Shown here: piece by piece, positions 7,971-30,557 of the stretch
Position numbering within the stretch: the first letter of the stretch is position 1
Layout: each line of letters begins with the position of its first letter
Origin: Haliea sp.
GTDB taxonomy: Bacteria > Pseudomonadota > Gammaproteobacteria > Pseudomonadales > Halieaceae
Assembly (NCBI GenBank): GCA_041746975.1
Contig: JBGTGB010000058.1
Span: forward strand, 3,855-67,854
Direction: 5' to 3'
DNA: 64,000 bases
Program-made: the position numbers and the translations under genes
The notes under the pieces: generated by a model
The model's database searches: none
What the model saw: the letters and a program-made list of their open reading frames with translations, nothing else
What the model was told of the DNA's origin: nothing

Positions 7971-8285
7971 ATGGCAGCCTATATGGTGGTCGAGGCAGAA
8001 ATTGAGCAGCCTCAGGGGTTTGCGGCCTATGCGAGAGCGGTGCCGGCGCTGGTGGCGGAATACGGTGGCGAGTATCTTGTGCTCGGCGGAGAGGCGGAGT
8101 CTCTGGAAGGGGATTGGGGTGGCGTCCGGCTGGTGCTGCACCGCTGGCCCGACCGCGACACGGCCCGCCGCTTCTGGCACTCTCCCGAATACCGGGAACT
8201 CAAGCGCCTGCGCGAGGGAACCGGCACCTTTCGTGTTATGTTGCTTGAGGGGCTGGAGCGAGAAGTGCTGGAGAACGCGCCATGA
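7971..8285 (+). CDS. DUF1330 domain protein
   Basis: AYMVVE...FAAYARAVPALVAEYGGEYLVLGG...LEGDW...FWHSPEYRELKRLR; AGGAG RBS at 7961. Confidence 0.85.
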   Translation: MAAYMVVEAEIEQPQGFAAYARAVPALVAEYGGEYLVLGGEAESLEGDWGGVRLVLHRWPDRDTARRFWHSPEYRELKRLREGTGTFRVMLLEGLEREVLENAP

Positions 8286-17623: not shown

Positions 17624-18553
17624 CTAAAAAGGCCGGGGCAATGCCCCGGCCTTTTTATTTTGTGTCCGGGCCACAACCTCAAGATAGACAATCGAACCGA
17701 CAACAATGGCGATACCCACCAGTTGTAACGCCGAAATCTGTTCGCCCAGAAAAAGCACTGCCATTATGGCCGCTGCTGGTGGGCCTACAGTACTGGCAAA
17801 TGCTGCTCGCTGTGAGCCAATGCGGCGCACACCCTCTGCCATCAGCGAAAGCGGGATTATCGTTGCAATCATTACCAGCGCGCCCAACCACGCCCACGCC
17901 TCGGCCGACAGTGCAAGATCAAGCCACCCGTGGCGGAGCTGGTAGTGCACTGCGAAAGCACCACCCGCGGCGCCCATGGCCAGAAGAGTGAAAAGCGTGC
18001 TGCCTATTTCAGGGGTCAATCGCGCACTGATCAAAAAATAAATTGCTATTGTCAGGGCGCAGAAAAAGACCCAGAGCGCACCTTCAATATTGGCGCTGAG
18101 CAACTCCGTGCTGTCAATTCCCACCACCAGGATGATACCGACAAAGGTTGTCACCAGCGCCGCCACAGTGGAACGCCTTAAGGGCTCGAAACCCAGCAGG
18201 ACAGCCAACATTACGACAATTGCGGGGTAGGTATAAAGAAGGGACCGCTCCACACTCGCATCAATGAGTGTTAGGGCATAGAAGTTCGAGAGGGCGCCGA
18301 GGTAATAGCATAGGAAGCCTGCGGCTATTGCTGTTGCCGCATGCGAAAGTTTTAAGTGAACATCGCGGCGAAAGGACCCAGACAGGAACGCGATGACCAG
18401 AAATCCTGGCACAGCCAGTACGGAACGCGCCGCCGCTACGGTCTCATAGTCAACTCCCAGGCTATATAGCTGCTTGGCAAAAATCCCCTTGGCAGCCAGC
18501 ATGATAGAGCCGACCAGAACAAACAGAGAGCCCATCCATAGGTTTCGCGTCAC
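17624..18553 (-). CDS. DMT/EamA family transporter
   Basis: Two EamA repeats, about 10 TM; KGIFAKQLY, LLYTYPAIV, RRIGSQRAA, FLGEQIS. Confidence 0.9.
   Translation of the reverse strand: MTRNLWMGSLFVLVGSIMLAAKGIFAKQLYSLGVDYETVAAARSVLAVPGFLVIAFLSGSFRRDVHLKLSHAATAIAAGFLCYYLGALSNFYALTLIDASVERSLLYTYPAIVVMLAVLLGFEPLRRSTVAALVTTFVGIILVVGIDSTELLSANIEGALWVFFCALTIAIYFLISARLTPEIGSTLFTLLAMGAAGGAFAVHYQLRHGWLDLALSAEAWAWLGALVMIATIIPLSLMAEGVRRIGSQRAAFASTVGPPAAAIMAVLFLGEQISALQLVGIAIVVGSIVYLEVVARTQNKKAGALPRPF
17626..17656. terminator. Bidirectional intrinsic terminator
   Basis: AAAAA-GGCCGGGGC-AAT-GCCCCGGCC-TTTTT between convergent genes; lies within the last codons of the DMT ORF. Confidence 0.85.
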
Positions 18554-19218
18554 TCTGCTCCAAGCTCGGCAATTACTTCATCGGTAGTCATCACTCGCGA
18601 CCATAGGCGCTGCAACATGCTCAATGTGGCCTCCTGCATATCTTCACTGTCTGTGCCGGTGCCGTCGCTTACGATGACCACGCTGTACTGGGCATCGCAG
18701 GCCTCCATCGCAGTCATCGCTACGCAGTTATTTGTCGATACTCCCACACACACAACCGATTTGATACCCATCGCCTTCAGATGCGAGTCGAGACCGGTAG
18801 ACCGGAAGGCGCCCTGGGTTGTTTTGTTAACCACCAGATCCTCCGGACTAGGTTTCAGTGCCGCCACAATCTCATGTTCGGGCTGGCCCACAATATTGTT
18901 CGTTGCCTTAACGATGCCGGCAATATGCCTTGGGACGTCACTGGCATCGGGCATATTGGATCCATAGGTTATGTAAATTACCTTGGCGCCGACGGATCTG
19001 ACGCAGTCAGCAAGCCTCGAAATGTTCGGAATCAACACCTGTTCGATACGATCAAATCGATAGTTCGCGTCCTCAAGTGTTCCTTGCTCAGCCAGTATCC
19101 TTCCCAGCCCCATCAGACGGTTGCCGGTAGCGTTCTGCATATCGATTATCAGCAGGGCTGTATCTGCCGCGCTTAGTGAGACGGATTGGCTGAACGAGTC
19201 GACAAAAGTGGGGCGCAT
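18550..19218 (-). CDS. Isochorismatase-family cysteine hydrolase
   Basis: Asp (LLIIDMQN), Lys (VVNKTTQGAF), Cys (GVSTNNCV) triad. Confidence 0.9.
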   Translation of the reverse strand: MRPTFVDSFSQSVSLSAADTALLIIDMQNATGNRLMGLGRILAEQGTLEDANYRFDRIEQVLIPNISRLADCVRSVGAKVIYITYGSNMPDASDVPRHIAGIVKATNNIVGQPEHEIVAALKPSPEDLVVNKTTQGAFRSTGLDSHLKAMGIKSVVCVGVSTNNCVAMTAMEACDAQYSVVIVSDGTGTDSEDMQEATLSMLQRLWSRVMTTDEVIAELGAE

Positions 19219-19270
19219 GTGGAGTATTCCTTGGCCTGGATAGCATTAAAATAAGCGCTAATAAACTTGA

Positions 19271-19284
19271 AATGTTCGGACATT
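19271..19284. promoter_or_regulatory. Operator palindrome AATGTTCGGACATT
   Basis: 12/14 identical to the 14935 site; between the divergent isochorismatase genes. Confidence 0.7.
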
Positions 19285-19339
19285 TTAGATCAAATAGGAG
19301 TTCACGTCATCAACATCATTGTTCCCGGGACTACTGGAT

Positions 19340-19972
19340 ATGGATGAATTTGAAAAAGCAGGCTATGGGCAAAAGCCTATTGGTTATGGTGATCGCCCGG
19401 CTGTATTGATAGTCGATTTTCAAAAAGGTTTTACTGACGCGTCGTACCCGCTGGGCAGGTCCTCACATGTGCAGCGGGCCGTGGACAACACCGCAGTCCT
19501 GGTGGCGGAAGCCCGCCAGCGCGGGATTCCAGTCGCATCCTGCAATGTTGCCTGGCAAAGCGCTGCTGACATGGCCTACTGGAAAATAGCGTCGCTATAT
19601 GACGGCACGTTCTTTCACGGGCATCCTTGCACAGAGTTCGATCCGAGAATTTCCGACCCCGATTACATTTTTCAATTTACCAAAACCGCCCCTTCGATTT
19701 TCTTCCAGACCCCAGTGGTGACATGGCTGACAAAGCACTGCATCGACACCACCATTATCACCGGGTGCACTACATCCGGATGTGTGCGTGCGTCTATCGT
19801 GGACTCTTTCTCCTATGGCTTTCGGACCATCGTTCCTGAAGATTGCTGCGGCGACCAGAACGAAGATGCGCATCGGAGCAACCTGCGAGACGTAGGTCGA
19901 CGCTATGCCGATGTCACTACGCTGGCTGATGTCATTGCTCACTTTGAAACACATTTTCCCAAGGCCAACTGA
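19340..19972 (+). CDS. Isochorismatase-family hydrolase (N-carbamoylsarcosine amidase / maleamate amidohydrolase-like)
   Basis: GYGDRPAVLIVDFQKGFTD, FTKTAPSIFF, GCTTSGCVRAS, DVGRRYADV. Confidence 0.9.
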   Translation: MDEFEKAGYGQKPIGYGDRPAVLIVDFQKGFTDASYPLGRSSHVQRAVDNTAVLVAEARQRGIPVASCNVAWQSAADMAYWKIASLYDGTFFHGHPCTEFDPRISDPDYIFQFTKTAPSIFFQTPVVTWLTKHCIDTTIITGCTTSGCVRASIVDSFSYGFRTIVPEDCCGDQNEDAHRSNLRDVGRRYADVTTLADVIAHFETHFPKAN

Positions 19973-19981
19973 GGATCCACG

Positions 19982-20785
19982 ATGCCAACTGCAACAATTA
20001 ACAACCACACCATGTATTACGAAGTCCATGGCGATGGCCCGCCCGCAGTCTACATCGGGGGTTGGGACACCTTCTGTCACGGCCGGGAGCATTTTCTCGC
20101 GCGCGGCATGACCGACAAGTATTCAGTGCTTTTGGTGGACTATCGTGGCATCGGTGAATCTGATGACGATTTGAGCGTTGCTCCAACCACAGAATTACAT
20201 GCCGACGATATCATCGGCCTGCTGGACCACCTCGGTATGACCAGTGTTTATTTTGTCGGCCTCGTCGGTATCGGTGCCTGTATCGGTCAATGGGTAGCTT
20301 TAAAGCGACCGGATCTGGTGCGCTGTATGGTGAACATGGGTTGCTGGACGTACTCCGACGATTGCATGCGCGATCAGCTCAACGCGTTGGGGGTCATGCA
20401 TGAGAAAGCCGGCTTCCTTGCGTTTCAGGAACTCGTTGCGGTGTATTCATTCCGGCCCGACTATTATATTGCCAACCGACACAAGTTATTGGGCAGCGGG
20501 CGCGTATGGGGAGTGCTTGAGAATAGGTTGACCGCTCATTTACGATTCATTGAGGCCTGTAACAGTCACGACATAAGGCCTCACCTGAAGGATATCGGTG
20601 CCCCGACGCTGGTTATTCATGCGGGGCAGGACGTCATCACTGGGCCTCGCACCACGACCCCTCTGGAAGAAGGTCTGCCCAATGCGGTGGGAGTGACCAT
20701 GGGCGATGTGGCCCATGTGGTCGCGGGCAAGGACGAAAAAATCGCCTTCTGTAAAATCCTCCACGACTTTCTGGACCAGCACTAG
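19982..20785 (+). CDS. Alpha/beta hydrolase fold protein lacking the nucleophile Ser
   Basis: MYYEVHGDGP, DYRGIGESD, PTLVIHAGQD, VAH; elbow reads GLVGIG instead of GxSxG. Confidence 0.85.
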   Translation: MPTATINNHTMYYEVHGDGPPAVYIGGWDTFCHGREHFLARGMTDKYSVLLVDYRGIGESDDDLSVAPTTELHADDIIGLLDHLGMTSVYFVGLVGIGACIGQWVALKRPDLVRCMVNMGCWTYSDDCMRDQLNALGVMHEKAGFLAFQELVAVYSFRPDYYIANRHKLLGSGRVWGVLENRLTAHLRFIEACNSHDIRPHLKDIGAPTLVIHAGQDVITGPRTTTPLEEGLPNAVGVTMGDVAHVVAGKDEKIAFCKILHDFLDQH

Positions 20786-20821: not shown

Positions 20822-22006
20822 CTAGATAATCCCGCGTGCCCTTAAATCGTCCAATGCCCCTCCGTGGCCGAGTTCTTCACCTAGCAGCGCATCATTGTCC
20901 TCCCCCAGTCCCCGGCCGGGGGAAATCGCGAGGCGTTCCTGGTCAAGGCGGATTGGATTTCTCAGCACCTGCAGTTCACCGTCGCGATGTGGAATGGTGG
21001 CGCGCATCTTGACCTTATCAACAAAAGGACTATCCAAAGCGGCGGGTAGATCGTAGACCGGCGCCACCGGCACGTAGGTCTGCAATTTTTCCAGCCAATT
21101 CGCTGTGTCATCCCCCTCGAATATCTGATCCAGTATCGGGGTGAGGAGATCTCTGTTTATTGCGCGATCTCGCATGTTCGCAAAGCGTGAGTCCTGAGCC
21201 AATTCAGGATGGCCAATGATATCTACCAGCAATCCCCAGAACTTTTCGGTCATGCACATGACGAATATCCAGCCATCCGCTGTCTTGACCAACTGCACCG
21301 GAGTTTGTGATGGGTGCGAACTGCGCGGCAGGCGTTCAGTGAGAATACCGTGGTTCATATACCAGGTTCCGGGGTAGCTTAACTGGTGTAGTGCCACATC
21401 GAACAAGCTTATATCGACGTCACGCCCGCCCTGGCTAGCCCGTCCTATCAACGCCGCCAGACATCCCATTCCCGCAACAGTGCCGGTCATGAAATCAATC
21501 ATTGACAGCCCAAATCGTGTTGGTGGTGAATCCGGGTCACCCGTAAGCTCGAGAAAACCGCATTCGGACTGCATGAGATAGTCATATCCGGGCCAGTCTG
21601 CGCGATCATTGTCTCTTCCGTAGGCCGAGATATGGGTACAGATGATATCGTCCTTAATAGATTTCAGGCTCGCATAGTCCAGGCCAAGCTTTGCGGGCTG
21701 ATTGCCTCTGAGATTGTTCCAGACCACGTCAGCGGTCTTCACAAGCTCATGGAATAATGCAGTCCCTTCCTGACTTTTCAGGTTCAGAGTGACACTCTTT
21801 TTGTTCAGATTGAATGCCTGGAAGTAGGTACTATCGTCCTCTCCCAGCAAGACCGCACCGGTTTGACGGGCCGGGTCTCCGCCACTTTCGCGGCTTTCTA
21901 TCTTGATCACCTCTGCACCGAGATCAGCCAGATACATGGATCCATAGGGCCCGGCGCCGAATTGTTCGATTGCCAGGACGCGAATGCCCTGCAGTGGTAG
22001 GTTCAT
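20822..22006 (-). CDS. CoA-transferase family III (CaiB/BaiF), third paralog
   Basis: PLQGIRVLAIEQFGAGPYG, LADLGAEVIKIE, NLNKKSVTLNLK, PGYDYLMQ. Confidence 0.92.
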   Translation of the reverse strand: MNLPLQGIRVLAIEQFGAGPYGSMYLADLGAEVIKIESRESGGDPARQTGAVLLGEDDSTYFQAFNLNKKSVTLNLKSQEGTALFHELVKTADVVWNNLRGNQPAKLGLDYASLKSIKDDIICTHISAYGRDNDRADWPGYDYLMQSECGFLELTGDPDSPPTRFGLSMIDFMTGTVAGMGCLAALIGRASQGGRDVDISLFDVALHQLSYPGTWYMNHGILTERLPRSSHPSQTPVQLVKTADGWIFVMCMTEKFWGLLVDIIGHPELAQDSRFANMRDRAINRDLLTPILDQIFEGDDTANWLEKLQTYVPVAPVYDLPAALDSPFVDKVKMRATIPHRDGELQVLRNPIRLDQERLAISPGRGLGEDNDALLGEELGHGGALDDLRARGII

Positions 22007-22102: not shown

Positions 22103-22150
22103 ATTCTACAGTCATAGAAGATTAAGCGTCAAATGTCCGGTCAATTGACG
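22103..22150. promoter_or_regulatory. Back-to-back sigma70 -35 boxes flanking operator AATGTCCGGTCAAT (22132-22145)
   Basis: CGTCAA (22127-22132, TTGACG on minus) with TAGAAT (22103-22108, minus) 18 bp away; TTGACG on plus at 22145-22150. Confidence 0.65.
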
Positions 22151-22191
22151 GTTGGACTTTGGGAATGATAACTGCCAAAGAGAGGTGCAAT

Positions 22192-24249
22192 ATGTCTTAT
22201 CGCCTAGGAGTCGACGTAGGGGGAACGTTTACTGACCTCTTATTGGTTGACGAGGATTCGGGGAAAGTTTTCACCGCAAAAGTGCCCAGCACACCGGATG
22301 ATTCCTCCATTGGTGTGCTCAATGGTATCAAGCGTGTATGCGAAATCGCCAACGTCGATCCCGGCAAGATCTCGCAGGTTATGCACGGCACCACGGTTGC
22401 CACCAACACCATTCTGACCAACACCGGGGCCAAGGTGGGTCTGGTGACGACCAAGGGGTTTCGTCAGGTTCTGCAGATCGCGCGATCCTATGTGCCAGGT
22501 GGCCTGGGCGGCTGGGTCATTTACAACAAGAGCGATGCGCTTGCGCCACTGTCCTGCACAATCGAGGCGGATGAGCGAATGGGTGCAGATGGAAAGGTAG
22601 TTCGCCCCCTCAACAAGAAGGCGTTGAAGCAGTCACTGGAAAGCCTGAAAAAGGAAAATATCGAGGCACTCACAGTATGTCTCATCAACTCCTACGCAAA
22701 CGGCAGCAATGAGAAGGAAGTTGCCAAGATAGCGAAAGAGGTGTTGCCGGGAATTCCCATCTCGATCTCCTACGATGTTGTACCGGAGATGCAAGAGTAC
22801 GAGCGTGCCATAACAACCGTTGCAAACTCCTACGTGCGCCCCCGGGTCTCAAAGTATGTACAGAATCTGCAGCGCAAGCTCAGCAAGGAAATGGGCGGGG
22901 TCAAACTGCATATCCTGCGCTCCGACGGAGGCATGGCTTCAGCGAAGGTGGCCGAGTCACTACCTGTGAACCTGCTGATGAGCGGTCCTGCGGGCGGCGT
23001 TGCCGGTGCGGTCTGGGTAGCGAAGCAGGCCGGATTCAAGGACCTGCTAACCTTCGACATGGGGGGCACGTCCACCGATGTCGCGCTGGTTCAGGACGGC
23101 AAAGCGCAATTGCGTCGAGAAACCACCGTTGGTGACGTTACAGTCCGTGCATCTTCCGTGGACGTTCGAACTGTGGGTGCAGGGGGTGGCTCAATCGCTC
23201 ACGTGCCGGAGCTGACCGGCGCGCTTCGTGTCGGGCCAGAAAGTGCTGGCGCTGAACCGGGTCCTGCTGCCTATAACAAGGGCGGTACCCTGCCAACGGT
23301 GACCGATGCGAACGTAGTACTGGGTTACCTGCCAACAGAGGTGCGGCTTGGGGGTGACATGGAGATTCGCAAGGATCTCGCCGAGGACGCGATTCGGCCC
23401 ATTGCCAAGGCTCTGGGAATTTCCATCAAGCGTGCCGCCGCCGGCATCGTCGATATCGTCAATGAAAATATGTATGGCGCCCTGCGTCTGGTTTCGGTTG
23501 AGCAGGGCTATGACCCCCGCGAATTCGCTCTTATTGGCTTTGGTGGCGCGGGTCCCCTGCATGCCAACGCACTCGGGAAACTGATGAATAGCTGGCCGGT
23601 TATTGTCCCGCCAGGCCCGGGTGTATTGTGTGCGTATGGAGACGCCACGACACGGGTGCGCGATGAAGCTTCCCGCACCTTCATTCGTCGATTCAGTCAG
23701 ACAACCGCCGCTCAGGTAGCTCAGATGTTCGAGAAGCTGGCAGCGCAAGCGGAAAAAACGATCGAGAAGGAAGGAGTGCCGGAAAACGAGCGCAGCCTTA
23801 CCTACCAGGCAGATATTCGTTACCACGGACAGGGGCTGCTATTGACTGTAGACTTTGAATTGGATGCACTACGGTCACAAGGTCTGGACGTCATCGGTGA
23901 CCAGTTTGAAGAGATGCACAAGCAGCTGTTCACCTTCGCTCTTGAGAGCGACAAGGAAATTGTGAACCTGCGCGCGGTTGCGCAGGGGCGCTCCGCAGAT
24001 ATTGAACCTCAAAAGGTGGCTCAGGGGTCCCGCACACCGAACAAGGCGTCCATTATCGGTAAGTCCAGTGTTTACATGGACCACAAGGATCTGCAGGCCA
24101 CTCTGTACAAACGGTCAGAGCTGCGCGCTGGTAACGAAATCCCCGGGCCAGCTGTCTTGTTGGAAATGGATTCGACCACAGTTATTTTGCCAGGGCATAT
24201 CGGCAAGGTAGATACTTTCGGAAATATTCTGATTACGCCACAAGCGTAA
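22192..24249 (+). CDS. Hydantoinase A / 5-oxoprolinase family, ATP-binding subunit
   Basis: GVDVGGTFTD, HGTTVATN, SGPAGGVAG, DMGGTSTD, VGAGGGSIA, FGGAGPLHA. Confidence 0.95.
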   Translation: MSYRLGVDVGGTFTDLLLVDEDSGKVFTAKVPSTPDDSSIGVLNGIKRVCEIANVDPGKISQVMHGTTVATNTILTNTGAKVGLVTTKGFRQVLQIARSYVPGGLGGWVIYNKSDALAPLSCTIEADERMGADGKVVRPLNKKALKQSLESLKKENIEALTVCLINSYANGSNEKEVAKIAKEVLPGIPISISYDVVPEMQEYERAITTVANSYVRPRVSKYVQNLQRKLSKEMGGVKLHILRSDGGMASAKVAESLPVNLLMSGPAGGVAGAVWVAKQAGFKDLLTFDMGGTSTDVALVQDGKAQLRRETTVGDVTVRASSVDVRTVGAGGGSIAHVPELTGALRVGPESAGAEPGPAAYNKGGTLPTVTDANVVLGYLPTEVRLGGDMEIRKDLAEDAIRPIAKALGISIKRAAAGIVDIVNENMYGALRLVSVEQGYDPREFALIGFGGAGPLHANALGKLMNSWPVIVPPGPGVLCAYGDATTRVRDEASRTFIRRFSQTTAAQVAQMFEKLAAQAEKTIEKEGVPENERSLTYQADIRYHGQGLLLTVDFELDALRSQGLDVIGDQFEEMHKQLFTFALESDKEIVNLRAVAQGRSADIEPQKVAQGSRTPNKASIIGKSSVYMDHKDLQATLYKRSELRAGNEIPGPAVLLEMDSTTVILPGHIGKVDTFGNILITPQA

Positions 24250-24268: not shown

Positions 24269-26233
24269 ATGCCAGCAACCATCGTTGAGACCAATACTAC
24301 CAAGTTCAAGCATAAGGACATCGATCCCATTACGCTCGACATCATCGAAAATGCGATGATGAACGCGAGATACGAGATGGATACGGTGCTGTTCAGAACC
24401 GCCATGTCTCCTGGTATACGGGAGCAGCATGACGAATTTCCCATGATTGCGAACCGCGACGGCAAGATGGTCGTCGGCCAGTTCGGAAGCTTCATCCATG
24501 GTTTCAAAGAGGCTTACGACGGCACCATAGAGGAGGGTGATCTTTTCCTGACTACAGACCCCTACTCCTGCAACGGCGCCATCAGTCACGTAAACGATTG
24601 GTTGCTGCTGCGGCCGATCTTCAAGAACGGGCGCCTGATTGCCTATGCGGCGATGTTTGGTCATATGACCGACGTCGGTGGCAAGGTGCCTGGAAGCTTG
24701 CCGACCGATGCCCGTGAGATTTTTGAGGAGGGTATTCGCATACCGCCTACCAAGATATTCAGGAACGATGAATTGCAGGAAGACCTGCTCAACCTGATAT
24801 TGCACAACTGCCGCTTGCCTCACTGGAACCGAAGCGACTTCAATGCACTAGTCGCGGCTATCAGGACGGCGGAAAAGCGGGTAATCGAAATTGCCAATCG
24901 GTTCGGAGATGACCATTTCTACTCTGCCCTGGACGAATTGCTTGAACGCAACAAGCTGGCCATGTCGAAGCTCATCAAAAGAACTGTGTCCACCAAGAAG
25001 ATGGTCTTTGAGGACTACATCTGTGACGACGGCCTGGGTATGGGGCCGTATAAGATCAAGTGTGCAATGTGGCGTGAGGGTGACAAGGTCATTTTCGACT
25101 TTGCAGGTACCGATCCGCAGTCGATCAGCTCTATCAACTTCCTGCTGAACGAAGAAATGTTCAAAATGTTTTGCGGTGTGTACATGATCATGATTTTTGA
25201 TCCGCAAATCATGTTCAACGATGGCTTCTATGACCTAATGGAGGTCAGAATTCCTTTCGGCACGCTGCTGAAACCGAAGCAGCCCGCGGCACTTTCATGT
25301 CGCACTCACGCCCTGGGCCGTATTTTTGACGTGCTCGCCGGACTTCTCGGTCAGGGCAGCCCAGACCTTCTTGCAGGAGCCGGCTTCTCCGATAGTCCGC
25401 ACTTCATGTATTCGGGCTACGACAAGAATGGCGACTGGTACCAGCTCTACTCAATCGGCTTTGGGGGCATACCCGGCAAGCCGACAGGGGACGGCCCCGA
25501 CGGACATTCGCTTTGGCCCAGTTTTACCAACGTCCCCAATGAGTTTCTGGAGAGTTACTTCCCGTTACGCATAGAACTCTATGAGACCATACCTGATAGT
25601 GGAGGCCCAGGACTGCATCGAGGCGGCAACGGGTTGCGTATGGCATACTGCTTCCTCGAGCCCGGCACAATTTCAGTGCACGATGATCGCTGGCTGACCT
25701 ATCCCTGGGGTGTGAATGGCGGTCTTCCGGGCCGTAGGTCCGAGAAACTATTGCACCGAACAGACGGCACCATAGAAAAACTTCCTTCCAAATGCGATCT
25801 GATCGAAGTGAACGCCGGTGATATTCTGCACTTCAATACCTGGGGTGGCGGTGGCTGTGGCGATCCGTTCAAGCGCCCTGCCGAGCGCGTTGCATTTGAC
25901 GTCAAGGCCGGTCTGGTTACGCGCAAGGGAGCGGAGCGTTACGGCGTTGTCCTTGAGGATGATTTGTCCGTTAACGAAAAGAAAACTGCCAGTTTGCGGG
26001 AAAAATTGTCCAAAGCTCGAGGCAAGCCCCCTGTCTTTGATCGTGGAGGCACCATCGACGAACTCAAGGCCCGCTGCTTTAAGGAGACCGGGCTGCAGCC
26101 ACCGCGTCAGCCGGAGTTTCAAACCTGGGCCACCAAGCTGGTTGATCTGGCACCCAAGAAGGCCAAGAAAGCCAAGCAGGCGAAAGCCGTCACAGGCAAG
26201 TCGGCCGCGAAGCGCAAAAATAAAGTAGCGTGA
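24269..26233 (+). CDS. Hydantoinase B / 5-oxoprolinase family subunit
   Basis: DPITLDIIEN, TAMSPGIRE, GHMTDVGGKVPGS, EEGIRIPP, DSGGPGLHRGGNG, TWGGGGCGDP; Lys/Ala-rich C-terminal tail. Confidence 0.95.
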   Translation: MPATIVETNTTKFKHKDIDPITLDIIENAMMNARYEMDTVLFRTAMSPGIREQHDEFPMIANRDGKMVVGQFGSFIHGFKEAYDGTIEEGDLFLTTDPYSCNGAISHVNDWLLLRPIFKNGRLIAYAAMFGHMTDVGGKVPGSLPTDAREIFEEGIRIPPTKIFRNDELQEDLLNLILHNCRLPHWNRSDFNALVAAIRTAEKRVIEIANRFGDDHFYSALDELLERNKLAMSKLIKRTVSTKKMVFEDYICDDGLGMGPYKIKCAMWREGDKVIFDFAGTDPQSISSINFLLNEEMFKMFCGVYMIMIFDPQIMFNDGFYDLMEVRIPFGTLLKPKQPAALSCRTHALGRIFDVLAGLLGQGSPDLLAGAGFSDSPHFMYSGYDKNGDWYQLYSIGFGGIPGKPTGDGPDGHSLWPSFTNVPNEFLESYFPLRIELYETIPDSGGPGLHRGGNGLRMAYCFLEPGTISVHDDRWLTYPWGVNGGLPGRRSEKLLHRTDGTIEKLPSKCDLIEVNAGDILHFNTWGGGGCGDPFKRPAERVAFDVKAGLVTRKGAERYGVVLEDDLSVNEKKTASLREKLSKARGKPPVFDRGGTIDELKARCFKETGLQPPRQPEFQTWATKLVDLAPKKAKKAKQAKAVTGKSAAKRKNKVA

Positions 26234-26250: not shown

Positions 26251-26277
26251 GGGGCGCCTGTTGGCGCCCCTTTTTTT
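26251..26277 (+). terminator. Intrinsic terminator
   Basis: GGGGCGCC-TGTT-GGCGCCCC followed by T7. Confidence 0.85.
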
Positions 26278-27160
26278 ATTGCGGGAATTTCCTGGCTAGC
26301 GCGAGAATACGCTGAGCCTTGTATACCACCGGGTAATCAATGAAATAGCCATCAAGTTGAATGGATACAGAGCCACTGTTTTCAGCCGCCTCAAACGCCG
26401 CGACAATAGCTTCCGCGTGCGCAATCTCCTCAGCACTCGGGGTAAATACTTCATTACAGAGTGGCACCTGACTGGGGTGAATGCAAAGCTTGCCAGCGAA
26501 GCCGAATCTTTTGCCGCGAGCAGCCGAGGCGCGGAATCTTTCATCATCCCTTATTTGCAATACGACGGTGTCAATAGGTGGATCAATATTCGCCATTCGA
26601 GTGGCATGGCTAATGCGCGCTCTAGCGTAGTTCAGTACCTCTTCGTCTTCGCTCCAGATGTAGTCCAGGTCCAGGGTATAATCACCGCCGCCAAAAGACA
26701 GGCGTTTTACTCTGGAAACGGCACTGGCGATCTCAGTCGCGCACTCTACACCGCGAGCAGTCTCGATAATTGGCATCAGGTCAATGCCGCCGGGTGCCAT
26801 CCCGGCTTTACGCTCAGCAGTACTGATAAGCTCGTCAATTGCCAGCAGGCTAGCTGCGGATTCCACTTTGGGAATAACGATGCCATCAAGCCACGGCCCG
26901 ACCACCGCCCTTATGTCTTCCTCGCAGTACCCGGTTTCCAGAGAATTCACGCGGATGTAGCCCAGACAGCTCCGCGGGTTCTGCATCGCTGCTGTGACAC
27001 CGGCGCGAGTGGCAACTTTTTCGGCTACCGGGACCGCGTCTTCAAGGTCAAGTATGACGGCATCGGCCGAGGCGCCAAAGACCTTTTCGACTTTTCGCGG
27101 GTGGTTGCCGGGCGTGAACAAAAAGCTTCTGATTGTTCTGATGTCAGCAGCTGTATTCAT
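26276..27160 (-). CDS. CitE-like acyl-CoA lyase (HpcH/HpaI aldolase-citrate lyase family)
   Basis: RSFLFTPGN, ADAVILDLEDAV, IPKVES, IETARG, FGGGDY, GKLCIHPSQ, IDYPVV. Confidence 0.93.
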   Translation of the reverse strand: MNTAADIRTIRSFLFTPGNHPRKVEKVFGASADAVILDLEDAVPVAEKVATRAGVTAAMQNPRSCLGYIRVNSLETGYCEEDIRAVVGPWLDGIVIPKVESAASLLAIDELISTAERKAGMAPGGIDLMPIIETARGVECATEIASAVSRVKRLSFGGGDYTLDLDYIWSEDEEVLNYARARISHATRMANIDPPIDTVVLQIRDDERFRASAARGKRFGFAGKLCIHPSQVPLCNEVFTPSAEEIAHAEAIVAAFEAAENSGSVSIQLDGYFIDYPVVYKAQRILALARKFPQ

Positions 27161-27162
27161 GC

Positions 27163-27942
27163 TCAACCCCACGTCCAGCCATCAGCGGACTGCCAGCCGC
27201 GAGTGAATTCGAAGGAGTAATTGAAATTGGCCGCAGCATGTTCTGACAAAGAGGCTTCGAATATTCGGCCATTCTTGCCGAAATATCGACGGCACACTTT
27301 CAGGGACGCGGAACCTGGTTCAACATTCAGAAATCCGGCGACTCGCTCACTCAGAATGCTTGCATATATTTCGACTTGTATCTTTTGCACCTCTTCACCG
27401 TAGGAATCGGCGATAAGCCGATAAACGGGGGTAGACGTTGCGCCGATTTTGTCAATAACGCCGGCATACTCAGGCAGAATGTAGACATTCACCCAACAAA
27501 TGGGTAGCGCCGTCTCTACGAATGTTCGAAGACCTGAGACGCAGCTCCAGTGACTGCTGGTAGGACACTTGAGCTCGCGGGCCAGTGCCCTGTTCAGTTT
27601 GACGTCTTCGAATCGGTCGATGACGCGTAGCCGGCTGTCCTCGGGGTAGCTGAAAAGTTCGGAGGGCTCCTTCACCAACTGGGCGTAAGACGCCTGAGTT
27701 TCGCTGGCCACAATGATTGTGCCTATTCCCTGGCGGCGCTCGATCAGTCGCACTTCTTCAAGTACCCGAAGCGCGCCGCGAATAGTGTGGCGGCTGACGC
27801 GGTAGGTCTTCATCAGATCGAGTTCGCCCGGCATGCGCGTCCCAACGGCGAATTTTCCGCTGCGGATCGCGCCTAGAAGTTCTTCGGCGATGACTTTGTA
27901 ACGGGGACTTTTCCCGACATCGCTACCGGCAACGTTCAACAT
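27163..27942 (-). CDS. GntR family regulator, HutC/UTRA subfamily
   Basis: wHTH GTRMPGELDLMKTYRVSRHTIRGAL...RRQGIGT; C-terminal UTRA-like domain. Confidence 0.9.
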   Translation of the reverse strand: MLNVAGSDVGKSPRYKVIAEELLGAIRSGKFAVGTRMPGELDLMKTYRVSRHTIRGALRVLEEVRLIERRQGIGTIIVASETQASYAQLVKEPSELFSYPEDSRLRVIDRFEDVKLNRALARELKCPTSSHWSCVSGLRTFVETALPICWVNVYILPEYAGVIDKIGATSTPVYRLIADSYGEEVQKIQVEIYASILSERVAGFLNVEPGSASLKVCRRYFGKNGRIFEASLSEHAAANFNYSFEFTRGWQSADGWTWG

Positions 27943-27973
27943 GCTTGCATCCCAACCAACTTAATTGGATACT

Positions 27974-27987
27974 ATTGTCCGTACATT
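27974..27987. promoter_or_regulatory. Operator palindrome ATTGTCCGTACATT
   Basis: 12/14 identical to the 14935 site; between the divergent gntR and maoC starts. Confidence 0.7.
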
Positions 27988-28018
27988 TGGGGCCACAATC
28001 AAGCGTGAGGAGGAAATA

Positions 28019-28543
28019 ATGGGTGTGAGACAGGACGAGCAGCTTGGGCCGAATCGCTACCGTAGGGCAAGCGGTCGCTTGTATGAAGACTTCACGGTAG
28101 GAGATGTATACGAACACCACCCCGGGCGTACGGTAACTCAGCATGATAATGCGTGGTTTACCCTGTTGACCATGAACACCCATCCCCTGCATTTTGACGA
28201 GGAGTATGCCAAGGGAACCGAATTCGGAAAACCATTGATCTGCAGCCCGCTGACCGTCGCCATTCTGGTCGGAATGAGCGTCTCCGACGTGAGTGAAAAG
28301 GCCATTGCCAACCTCGGCTGGAAAGAAATCGCGCTGGTGGCACCGGTTTTCCCCGGCGATACCCTGTATGCCGAGTCGGAGGTTCTTGGCAAGCGTGAGT
28401 CCAAGTCACGGCCGAATGCTGGCGTGGTCACCGTAAAAACGACGGGTCGCAATCAGGACGGTAAACCAGTGTGTGTGTTCGAGCGCTCCATGCTGGTGCC
28501 TAAGCGCTCTGACGTGAACGTAACGACGGGGGCCATTTCATGA
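28019..28543 (+). CDS. MaoC-family hot-dog hydratase/dehydratase (RipB/itaconyl-CoA hydratase-like)
   Basis: LYEDFTVGDVYEH, WFTLLTMNTHPLHFD, IANLGW, PVFPGDTLYAESEVL; GGAGG RBS before ATG 28019. Confidence 0.88.
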   Translation: MGVRQDEQLGPNRYRRASGRLYEDFTVGDVYEHHPGRTVTQHDNAWFTLLTMNTHPLHFDEEYAKGTEFGKPLICSPLTVAILVGMSVSDVSEKAIANLGWKEIALVAPVFPGDTLYAESEVLGKRESKSRPNAGVVTVKTTGRNQDGKPVCVFERSMLVPKRSDVNVTTGAIS

Positions 28544-29712
28544 AAAACACCGATTTTAACACCCAGGAATACGCGGAACTGGAAGCGCAGATTCTGGATA
28601 CTATCGATCGTTGGGTAGAGAAGGACGTCAGGCCCATAGCGAGGCATTTTGATCAGGCGGACGAGTACCCTGTCGAGCTGGTCGAGCAAATGAAAGAACT
28701 GGGCTTGTTTGGCGCGACTATATCACAGGAATATGGCGGCCTGGGTTTGAGTGCAACCACCTATGCACGTATCGTATCCAGAATATGTGAAGTGTGGATG
28801 GCGCCTACAGGCGTGTTCAATTCTCATTTGATCATGGCGAGTTGCGTTCAGCGTGCGGGCACCGCAGAGCAGAAAGAGCGATTCCTGCCGCGGTTCGCCA
28901 CCGGCGAGCTGAGAGGTGGAGTTGGCCTGACCGAACCTGATGCCGGGACCGATCTTCAGGGGATTAGAACCGTTGCGCGGCGGGACGGCGACGACTACGT
29001 CATCAATGGCACCAAGACCTGGATCACCAACGGCATCAAGGGCAATTGCCTGGCCGTCTTGACCAAAACCGACCCTACCGTTTCCCCTGCTCACAAAGGT
29101 ATGAGCCTGTTTTTGTGCGAAAAGGGTGACGGCTTCACAGTAGGCAAAAAGCTGAAGAAGTTGGGCTACCGGGCGATCGACAGCGCTGAGCTGATCTTCC
29201 AGGACTTTCGCGTCAGCAAGGATAACTTGATTGGTGGAGAGGAGGGTCGTGGCTTTGTGCAGGTGGCCGGCGGGCTTGAGTTGGGCAGGATTAATATCGC
29301 TGCGAGAGGTGCCGGCATGGCCGCGGGCGCAACCAAACTGTCCCTCGCCTATGCCAAGGACCGCAAGACTTTCGGCAAGGCGATCGTTGAGCATCAGGCT
29401 ATTCAGCTGAAACTTGCCGAAATGTCTACTCGTTCCGAGGCAGCCAGATTGTTGGTTGAACAAGCTGCGCGCAAGTACGATCAGGATGAACGTTGTGATC
29501 TGGAGGCGGGCCAGGCCAAGTTTTTTGCCTCCGAAGCGGCAGTGCAGAACAGCCTCGATGGCATGCGGGTATTCGGTGGCTACAGCTATTCGACCGAGTA
29601 TGAAATCGAGCGATTCTACCGGGACGCCCCGCTTCTCTGTATCGGCGAGGGTACCAACGAAATCCAGCGGATCATTATCGCCAAGCAGATGGTGGCGAGA
29701 TCAGGCGGTTAG
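28540..29712 (+). CDS. Acyl-CoA dehydrogenase
   Basis: LTEPDAGTDL, NGTKTWITNG, LELGRINIA, RKTFGKAI, GGYSYSTEY, IGEGTNEIQR. Confidence 0.95.
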   Translation: MKNTDFNTQEYAELEAQILDTIDRWVEKDVRPIARHFDQADEYPVELVEQMKELGLFGATISQEYGGLGLSATTYARIVSRICEVWMAPTGVFNSHLIMASCVQRAGTAEQKERFLPRFATGELRGGVGLTEPDAGTDLQGIRTVARRDGDDYVINGTKTWITNGIKGNCLAVLTKTDPTVSPAHKGMSLFLCEKGDGFTVGKKLKKLGYRAIDSAELIFQDFRVSKDNLIGGEEGRGFVQVAGGLELGRINIAARGAGMAAGATKLSLAYAKDRKTFGKAIVEHQAIQLKLAEMSTRSEAARLLVEQAARKYDQDERCDLEAGQAKFFASEAAVQNSLDGMRVFGGYSYSTEYEIERFYRDAPLLCIGEGTNEIQRIIIAKQMVARSGG

Positions 29713-29734
29713 GTGAGCCCCCGGTCCTGAACCT

Positions 29735-30406
29735 TTACTTCGAGAGGAAAGTGGTGAACTCATCCACCTCCAACCTGGGCGTCCGATACTGGTTCACCGG
29801 TGCGCCTGGATCCGCATAACCCAGGGACATCGCTGAGACGAACATCTGTTCCGGTGGTGCGCCGATCAGGCCCATCACCGTATCGTGATACTTGAGAAAG
29901 GCCGCCTGAGCACAGGTCTCAAGACCAAAGCCGCGCGCCGAGAGCATTATCGACTGGATAAAGATTCCGTAGTCTATCCAGCTGCCCAGCTCAAGGTCGC
30001 GGTCGATGGTGAACAACAGGGCGACGGGCGCATCGAAGAATTGGTAATTTCTTCGATGTTGGCGCGACATGGCCTGTTTATCGTCCTTTTCGATACCCAA
30101 GTGGCCATACAGTCCCCAGCCGGTGTTGCGGCGGCGGCCGATGTAGGGTTCTCGCCATGCGACCGGATAGTAGTTGTATTCCTGCTCGCCGGCATCGCCT
30201 TGATCGTGTCGGAGGCAGCAGGCATCGACAATTTGCTGGCGTTTTTCGCCGCTGGCGACCCACACCCGCCAGGGTTGAATATTGGATCCAGAGGCGGCTC
30301 GACCGGCCGTGCGGAGAATTTCTTCGATGATCTTCTGGGGAACCGGCCTGTCTTTTCTGAACGCGCGTATGGATTGGCGCCCGTTGATTGCTTCATTTAC
30401 GTCCAT
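29735..30406 (-). CDS. Nitroreductase family protein
   Basis: RQSIRAF, AASGSNIQPW, FFDAPV, MLSARGFGLETCAQ, MSLGYAD. Confidence 0.9.
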   Translation of the reverse strand: MDVNEAINGRQSIRAFRKDRPVPQKIIEEILRTAGRAASGSNIQPWRVWVASGEKRQQIVDACCLRHDQGDAGEQEYNYYPVAWREPYIGRRRNTGWGLYGHLGIEKDDKQAMSRQHRRNYQFFDAPVALLFTIDRDLELGSWIDYGIFIQSIMLSARGFGLETCAQAAFLKYHDTVMGLIGAPPEQMFVSAMSLGYADPGAPVNQYRTPRLEVDEFTTFLSK

Positions 30407-30557
30407 ATCCTGCTGCGCCCCACGCCTTGAGCTTGCATGCTGTCCCTCCATCCAAAAGCCAGCATAGCACCTAACCCCGGCGGGGTATTGCTCCCGCAGG
30501 GTGGCTCTGCGAAGTTGAGGCCTCCGTGCTGCGGCACGCAGGTAATGGAGAAGCGTG

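Follow-up and report, generated by a model that had tools for sequence, protein, structure and literature searches.

A serine-less alpha/beta-hydrolase-fold protein encoded with two isochorismatase-family hydrolases in a putative catabolic island of Haliea sp.

What can an alpha/beta-hydrolase-fold protein do once the nucleophile of its elbow is gone? The question is raised by a 64,000-nucleotide stretch of DNA from Haliea sp. (Gammaproteobacteria, Halieaceae; assembly GCA_041746975.1, contig JBGTGB010000058.1, positions 3,855 to 67,854 of the forward strand), which is referred to in its entirety as the window. Here such a protein is encoded beside two cysteine hydrolases of the isochorismatase family, designated Iso1 and Iso2. 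The alpha/beta protein is a member of a distinct, near-monophyletic serine-less clade, in which a one-residue insertion in the elbow puts Val-Gly or Gly-Gly at the position of the nucleophile. Iso1, Iso2 and the alpha/beta protein are best explained as functional components of a catabolic island that has spread horizontally and is under GntR control. The features on which the question turns are the following:

19982-20785, plus strand: serine-less alpha/beta-hydrolase-fold protein, 267 amino acids (PF00561 match, AlphaFold, Foldseek)
20258-20275, plus strand: its elbow, G93-L94-V95-G96-I97-G98 (alignments and predicted secondary structure)
20279-20281, plus strand: Cys100, inside helix 97-108 (translation)
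20630-20632, plus strand: Asp217, the acid position after strand 209-214 (conservation)
20714-20716, plus strand: His245, the catalytic base position (conservation; aligns with the catalytic His of esterase Est1)
18550-19218, minus strand: Iso1, isochorismatase-family cysteine hydrolase, 222 amino acids (PF00857 match)
19319-19972, plus strand: Iso2, isochorismatase-family cysteine hydrolase, 217 amino acids (PF00857 match)

The fold itself is supported by a PF00561 (Abhydrolase_1) score of 40.9 bits against a cutoff of 25.8, an AlphaFold model with a predicted local distance difference test (pLDDT) value of 94.9, and Foldseek matches at probability 1.00, in which serine esterases and the enol-lactonase 2xua reach template modeling (TM) scores of 0.8-0.85. 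Homologues are numerous (478 at E<=1e-10), and nearly all of the best 120 have a length of 267 amino acids; existing records name the protein “3-oxoadipate enol-lactonase” or “pimeloyl-ACP methyl ester carboxylesterase”, and the ESM Atlas returned generic alpha/beta hydrolase clusters only. The elbow region reads VYFVGLVGIGACIGQ. In an alignment of the close family, comprising 115 homologues of 56–89% identity, G93, L94, G96, G98, C100, D126, D217, H245 and Trp28 are invariant, and V95 is kept in 114 and replaced by Ile in one. No Ser, Cys or Asp serves as an elbow nucleophile in the protein or in any of the 115. The original prediction, made from the window’s letters alone, had described a nucleophile-less protein that keeps its Asp and His positions, with GLVGIG at the elbow and a Cys just beyond it. 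Both the description and its coordinates proved exact, and D217 and H245, which are invariant in the close and the distant sets of homologues, align with the acid and His of the metagenomic esterase Est1.

Where exactly the missing serine would have stood was judged by several alignments. In the HMMER alignment to Est1, a MAFFT alignment taking in 84 serine-bearing representatives (G-x-S-M-G-G-x-I-A-Q), a profile-profile comparison with hhalign and a hidden Markov model (HMM) search of the PDB, the serine column is occupied by Gly96 and V95 is the insertion. The exception is the HMMER alignment to arylesterase 3hea, which sets V95 in that column instead; since V95 and Gly96 are both non-nucleophilic, the elbow has no nucleophile under either alignment. 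The predicted structure, which the original prediction had proposed as a check, agrees with an insertion: strand 89-94 of the model is followed by two coil residues (95-96) and helix 97-108, whereas in a serine-bearing paralogue from the same genome (pLDDT 95.3) Ser93 is the sole coil residue between strand 87-92 and helix 94-105.

The best sequence and fold matches of the protein are PcaD (2xua) and Est1 (6eb3/8v16). Common to all three are W122..D126, C193..H196-D197 and D217..T220..R223, but the elbow of the two relatives is Gly-x-Ser-Met-Gly-Gly, and in them strand 3 leads into a normal helix. Membership of the PcaD family itself (TIGR02427) was rejected on a score of 77.2 bits against a cutoff of 255.85 and on the lack of a catalytic Ser. 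After strand 3, residues 28-42 of the model form an irregular loop (pLDDT about 82) in place of a helix that spans 32-43 in the serine-bearing paralogue. Within the close family this loop holds the invariant residues C32, H33, G34, R41 and G42.

The rebuilt loop brings up one way in which the protein could remain a covalent hydrolase, namely by a relocated nucleophile such as Cys32, which follows the oxyanion residue Trp28, or Cys100. The invariance of C32-H33 and C100 in the close family would fit such a relocation, as would the finding that most members of the serine-less clade have Cys or Thr at position 32 and that the lower-confidence loop replacing the helix holds C32 and H33. Four clade members, however, have P, A, G or D at position 32, and C100 is not conserved across the clade and matches a buried A/M/C position of the serine enzymes. 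A relocated nucleophile is thus rather improbable. As for Cys100 acting as a classical nucleophile, an outcome that the original prediction had named as evidence against itself, its sequence setting makes this unlikely and the candidate was rejected. The residue sits inside a helix, at +4 from the serine column, and its column is variable: serine-bearing relatives have A, M or C there, and several members of the serine-less clade have A, L, G, I or T.

How far the serine-less condition extends was examined in a scan of 1.8 billion representative proteins, which gave 562 matches at E<=1e-10. Twenty-one full-length matches carry the inserted Gly-rich elbow G-x-(V/G)-G-x-G, and in a maximum-likelihood tree all 21 serine-less representatives group in one clade of 23 leaves with support of 0.96. 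W28, W122, H196, D217, R223 and H245 are invariant throughout the clade, down to about 30% identity, and H186 is nearly so. When 400 genomes of the phylum were searched with an HMM of the distant alignment, only paralogues with Ser or Ala were found outside the close family, and 4 of 80 loci from a metagenome scan (5-sequence alignment) were serine-less. The protein belongs to an unstudied branch of enzymes. A decaying pseudo-enzyme was considered and rejected because of the strong conservation and the coherent clade. Rather, the number of homologues, their uniform length, the invariant His245, Asp217 and Trp28, and the coherence of the clade suggest that the gene is functional.

The two neighboring hydrolases appear to be complete. 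Iso1 and Iso2 score 109.1 and 111.6 bits, respectively, with PF00857 (Isochorismatase; gathering cutoff 27), and canonical motifs in their translations give the candidate catalytic triads D26/K132/C165 in Iso1 and D33/K122/C155 in Iso2. The Asp-Lys-Cys set that had been read from the window is indeed unchanged in all 55 Iso1 and all 65 Iso2 orthologues from related loci. The Lys and Cys are 33 residues apart in both proteins, a spacing also found in RutB, NicF and CSHase. The true start of Iso2 is probably the ATG at 19340 (210 amino acids) and not the TTG at 19319, because orthologue alignments begin near residue 8. Neither protein reaches an equivalog cutoff of NCBIfam; for example, Iso1 scores 74.4 bits with BiuH (cutoff 370) and 74.2 bits with RutB (cutoff 378). 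The best PDB matches of Iso1 are uncharacterised cysteine hydrolases, biuret hydrolase and RutB. Iso2 is best matched by N-carbamoylsarcosine amidohydrolase 26st (3e-34), with 1nba at 1.5e-22. Its matches to 4l07/4l08 and 3ot4/3uao (1e-29 to 1e-31) have PDB titles that say isochorismatase-family hydrolases only; we take these entries to be the maleamate amidase NicF, which the titles do not name. Over this range of values (26st, 4l07, 3ot4 and 1nba, 3e-34 to 1.5e-22), Iso2 lies about equally far from N-carbamoylsarcosine amidase and NicF-type activities. Judged by their sequences, Iso1 and Iso2 look like active cysteine amidases of undescribed subfamilies.

Do the three genes belong together, and with what else? 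The remaining genes of the island are as follows:

15026-17614: TonB-dependent receptor gene, with a palindrome copy upstream
17624-18553, minus strand: EamA-family transporter, in an operon with Iso1 (PF00892)
20822-22006, minus strand: family III CoA-transferase (CoAT_3), convergent with the serine-less gene (PF02515, 347 bits)
22159-24249, plus strand: HyuA, ATP-dependent lactamase/hydantoinase-type (Hydantoinase_A/Hydantoinase_B domains)
24269-26233, plus strand: HyuB, ATP-dependent lactamase/hydantoinase-type (Hydantoinase_A/Hydantoinase_B domains)
26276-27172, minus strand: CitE/RipC-like lyase
27163-27942, minus strand: GntR/UTRA regulator
27965-28543, plus strand: Ich/RipB-like hydratase
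28540-29712, plus strand: acyl-CoA dehydrogenase

The island, at about 14–30 kb of the window, has a guanine-plus-cytosine content of 52–56% compared with 60–65% in its flanks. HyuA and HyuB fall below every NCBIfam equivalog cutoff, the caprolactamase models included, and the hydratase is similar to RipB/Ich and the lyase to RipC/CitE, both itaconate enzymes, with scores under the cutoffs. Positions 17625-17657, where the TonB-receptor and EamA genes converge, form a strong hairpin with a 15-bp stem and T runs on both sides, likely a bidirectional terminator. A separate module lies upstream at 8282-13656, with genes for a CN_hydrolase, a sigma54 activator of the PrpR type, a family III CoA-transferase and a member of the HMG-CoA-lyase family; in all, the window carries three family III CoA-transferases in a span of 11 kb.

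Four copies of a palindrome, with the exact form AATGT-N4-ACATT, lie in promoter regions of the island (no strand assigned):

19271-19284: AATGTTCGGACATT, exact match, in the divergent Iso1/Iso2 promoter region
14935-14948: second exact copy, upstream of the TonB-dependent receptor gene
22132-22145: copy with 2 mismatches, in the divergent CoAT_3/HyuA region
27974-27987: copy with 1 mismatch, between the GntR gene and the hydratase gene

A search tolerating as many as two mismatches gave five palindrome matches compared with 1.6 expected, and among 53 related loci, 41 have WWTGT-N4-ACAWW or its core in the spacer between Iso1 and Iso2. The copy at 19271 overlaps the -10 of a minus-strand promoter-like site, and that at 22132 overlaps the -35 of another; the promoter and terminator scan performed at chance level overall and was used solely for these overlaps. 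The palindrome at 19271 is a likely operator of the island’s GntR/HutC-type repressor. Iso1 overlaps the downstream EamA gene by 4 nucleotides, and 9 bp separate the Iso2 stop codon from the start of the alpha/beta gene, whose GAGGA ribosome-binding site extends over that codon. A lack of co-regulation with the island had been named at the outset as something that would count against the proposed set; the palindromes in four island promoters, the 4-nucleotide overlap and the 9-bp gap point the other way. The three genes apparently share one conserved island and are co-regulated with HyuA/HyuB.

Conservation of the neighborhood was measured by tblastn over 82 related loci, many of which end early at contig ends, with the following counts:

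Iso2: 65 of 82 loci
CoAT_3: 61 of 82 loci
Iso1: 55 of 82 loci
EamA transporter: 51 of 82 loci, next to Iso1
HyuA and HyuB: 45 and 42 of 82 loci, respectively
CitE-like lyase: 39 of 82 loci
GntR regulator: 36 of 82 loci
Ich-like hydratase: 32 of 82 loci
Acyl-CoA dehydrogenase: 32 of 82 loci

Wherever Iso2 is present (65 of the 82), the alpha/beta gene is the next gene downstream of it, in the same orientation and most often at a distance of 9–30 bp. The same coupling is seen at the level of genomes. A search of 41 relatives found the alpha/beta gene in three, and the 14 other genomes of the genus all lacked a match. Iso2 was found in exactly the same three, which also carry HyuB at 84% identity or more. 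Eight others (G002, G003, G004, G007, G012, G013, G016 and G020) have a HyuB paralogue of 63–66% identity, with neither Iso2 nor the serine-less gene found, which indicates that a HyuAB of this kind also works in another context.

Most of the loci L004–L065 also hold genes for a TauD-like dioxygenase (46 loci), an HpaB/AbfD-family protein (35) and a PrpD/MmgE-family protein (38) in the cluster. None of these was found in the window, where 17614-17624 and 27942-30451 were compared, and the genome to which the window belongs (92% complete) contains TauD paralogues of 30–32% identity only and no HpaB-like match. The island is accordingly present here in a reduced form. A protein of approximately 355–390 amino acids with a C-terminal S-adenosylmethionine (SAM)-methyltransferase domain and an N-terminal half assigned to no family stands beside HyuAB in four loci (L028:18076-19236, L078:3923-5092, L091:1082-2149 and L093:2878-3930). 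It is divergent from HyuAB in L078, L091 and L093, is kept at 30–59% identity beside HyuAB and the serine-less gene, and is not in the window.

More distant arrangements vary. The order in L078 and L082 is HyuA-HyuB-Iso2 followed by the serine-less gene, while in L091 and L093 (39% identity, elbow GLGGMG) it is HyuB-HyuA, the serine-less gene, and then genes of the short-chain dehydrogenase/reductase family, the major facilitator superfamily and the CN_hydrolase family. In L094 (8749-9849) a clade member (48% identity, elbow GIIGIG) is followed by a D-glutamate cyclase (PF07286) gene and a TRAP transporter, a neighborhood that hints at lactams of the 5-oxoproline type. In the Woeseiaceae and Lentisalinibacter, the serine-less gene lies between a lactonase gene of the SMP-30 type (SGL) and a family III CoA-transferase; the transferase directly after it is 32–35% identical, and these genomes keep HyuB (79% identical) and Iso2 (53% identical) elsewhere. 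Across these settings, the serine-less gene stays with an enzyme for ring opening or lactams, with an amidase and with a CoA-transferase.

Such arrangements bear on two further explanations. The first is a proton-transfer enzyme (racemase, epimerase or tautomerase) whose substrate would be the ring and which would work ahead of HyuAB or together with it, as a functional counterpart of hydantoin racemase, with the ring carbonyl in the oxyanion hole and His245 and His186 as two bases. Its place directly after HyuB-HyuA in L091 and L093 would suit that role, the adjoining D-glutamate cyclase family gene in L094 suggests a stereochemical theme, as this family interconverts D-glutamate and 5-oxo-D-proline, and both H245 and H186 are conserved across the clade. 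In addition, the classical hyu cluster of Pseudomonas sp. NS671 reportedly holds a trio of HyuAB, carbamoylase and racemase. Most loci, however, place the gene after Iso2 and beside the CoA-transferase, and we know of no racemase with the alpha/beta-hydrolase fold, so that a proton-transfer role is unlikely.

The second is that the protein is not a catalyst at all, and instead assists HyuAB or Iso2, whether as an accessory subunit, as a scaffold or by binding a ligand. Loss of the nucleophile would be expected of such a protein, and it is tightly coupled to Iso2 by the 9-bp gap and adjoins HyuA in distant loci; according to two reports, HyuAB-type carboxylases do use extra subunits (PMC5214803, PMC13677872). 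Set against this, His245, Asp217, Trp28 and Arg223 are invariant to about 30% identity, which is more than scaffolds usually keep, and in the Woeseiaceae the gene lies far from both HyuAB and Iso2. A purely structural role is, on this balance, quite improbable.

What, then, might the island and its serine-less protein do? Two intact amidases and the Ser-less protein share a co-regulated island with an enzyme that opens rings at the expense of ATP, so that removal of nitrogen from a ring compound is the probable function of the island. Lactam, imide or ureide, the classes named in the original prediction, are what we infer for that ring from the gene context. On the same grounds, HyuAB would open a stable N-containing ring using ATP, Iso1 and Iso2 would then remove amide or carbamoyl nitrogen, and the family III CoA-transferase, acyl-CoA dehydrogenase, Ich-like hydratase and CitE-like lyase would consume the di-acid that remains. 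The alpha/beta step may come after the amidases and before CoA activation. We give about an even chance to the reading that the alpha/beta protein is a non-covalent His-Asp acid-base catalyst working on the acid released by the amidases. In this case the protein would still be an enzyme, holding a carbonyl or carboxylate in an oxyanion hole made of the Trp28 NH and the Gly-rich elbow, with His245-Asp217, perhaps together with His186 of the lid and Arg223, as general acid-base and no covalent intermediate. The candidate reactions, in order of preference, would be loss of CO2 from an N-carboxy (carbamic acid) or beta-carboxy intermediate, hydrolysis of an enamine or imine, and hydration or isomerisation of an unsaturated di-acid.

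No described pathway joining hydantoinase, isochorismatase and CoA-transferase was found in literature searches, and several known systems resemble parts of the island. Creatinine degradation by ATP-dependent N-methylhydantoinase likewise combines a HyuAB-type enzyme with an isochorismatase-family amidase, and the best solved relative of Iso2, N-carbamoylsarcosine amidohydrolase, belongs to the comparison as well. To our knowledge the creatinine pathway has no Ser-less alpha/beta protein, second amidase or CoA module, unlike the island. The NicD/NicF pair is similar in that an alpha/beta-fold enzyme accompanies an isochorismatase-family amidase. NicD, however, is a serine deformylase, a role not possible for a Ser-less protein, and the island, unlike the NicD/NicF pathway, is without a ring-cleaving dioxygenase and a maleate isomerase.

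The pairing proposed at the outset as analogous, RutB with RutD, stands in that an isochorismatase-family cysteine amidase is paired with a Ser-less, His-keeping alpha/beta protein. As claimed, the Ser is absent from RutD, which reads GHALG in 3v48, in agreement with the ESTHER paper (PMC3531081). The analogy fails as to family. Membership in the RutD family (TIGR03611) was rejected on 69.8 bits against a cutoff of 238.5 and on the lack of a GHALG elbow, and the inserted residue of GLVGIG has no counterpart in the normal-length elbow of RutD. The routes also differ, as the Rut pathway uses the RutA/F oxygenase, whereas here ring opening is by ATP-dependent HyuAB and CoA steps follow. Thus, the protein is like RutD only loosely, as a Ser-less alpha/beta protein placed after a cysteine amidase. 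RutD has been proposed only to speed the breakdown of carbamate after RutB, which is also spontaneous, and RutC is the aminoacrylate deaminase (PMC8113886). Separately, a RutD-like protein was seen in L090 (9199-9999; 7.8e-55 to 3v48) with the elbow GHAIGG, and its gene lies among ABC transporter and RidA/L-PSP genes and not in a classical rut operon.

Another comparison is with tomato MKS1, a Ser-less 3-ketoacid decarboxylase of the alpha/beta fold (PMC3531081), in which the elbow nucleophile is likewise replaced and the chemistry is non-covalent. MKS1 differs in belonging to the plant hydroxynitrile-lyase branch and having GHALG without an insertion, and no specific sequence relationship was seen. 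With RutD and MKS1 as precedents, non-covalent chemistry on a Ser-less alpha/beta fold is plausible.

The fold is also a scaffold for cofactor-free oxygenases (PMC10548524), and a last alternative is a role like that of HOD or QDO, in which a His-Asp dyad would deprotonate an N-heterocycle for reaction with O2. The setting in N-heterocycle catabolism and the invariance of D126, after strand 6, and H245 accord with this. D126 and W122 are, however, common in serine-bearing relatives too, and most related loci have separate TauD-like and HpaB-like oxygenase genes alongside. Among the PDB matches listed there is no HOD or QDO entry and no specific similarity to either; only the His and Asp are in common. 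An oxygenase is accordingly very improbable.

Several points weigh against a non-covalent catalyst acting after the amidases. In the Woeseiaceae, where no amidase gene adjoins, the context agrees no less well with a step linked to CoA activation than with one following the amidases. The placement of His186, Arg223, Cys32 and Cys100 relative to His245 is deduced from sequence, and no solved structure was found within the serine-less clade by HMM search of the PDB, the nearest being the serine esterase Est1. A catalytic His is often retained in non-catalytic alpha/beta members (PMC3531081). Finally, the closest functional analogy is with RutD, a protein that lacks biochemical characterisation and can be dispensed with under laboratory conditions (PMC8113886), so the analogy transfers little mechanism.

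A wider reading, which is offered tentatively and with more doubt than belief, is that the Ser-less clade represents a new catalytic type in the alpha/beta fold and an obligate partner of HyuAB, which with the amidases would make up an undescribed route by which both nitrogen and carbon are drawn from an abundant marine N-heterocycle. Under the same tentative reading its step would be non-covalent, e.g., carbamic-acid decarboxylation, enamine hydrolysis or ring racemisation.

Nucleophile-less alpha/beta proteins are usually annotated as esterases or lactonases, and the protein described here can be neither an enol-lactonase nor a carboxylesterase. Purifying selection, the elbow insertion with its rebuilt loop, and the repeated partnership with HyuAB, amidase and CoA-transferase make the chemistry of the clade directly testable, and study of the clade may help to explain RutD, a protein of disputed role. 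Abundant coastal bacteria, namely Halieaceae, Luminiphilus and Woeseiaceae, commonly carry the island, and its substrate may matter for marine dissolved organic nitrogen.

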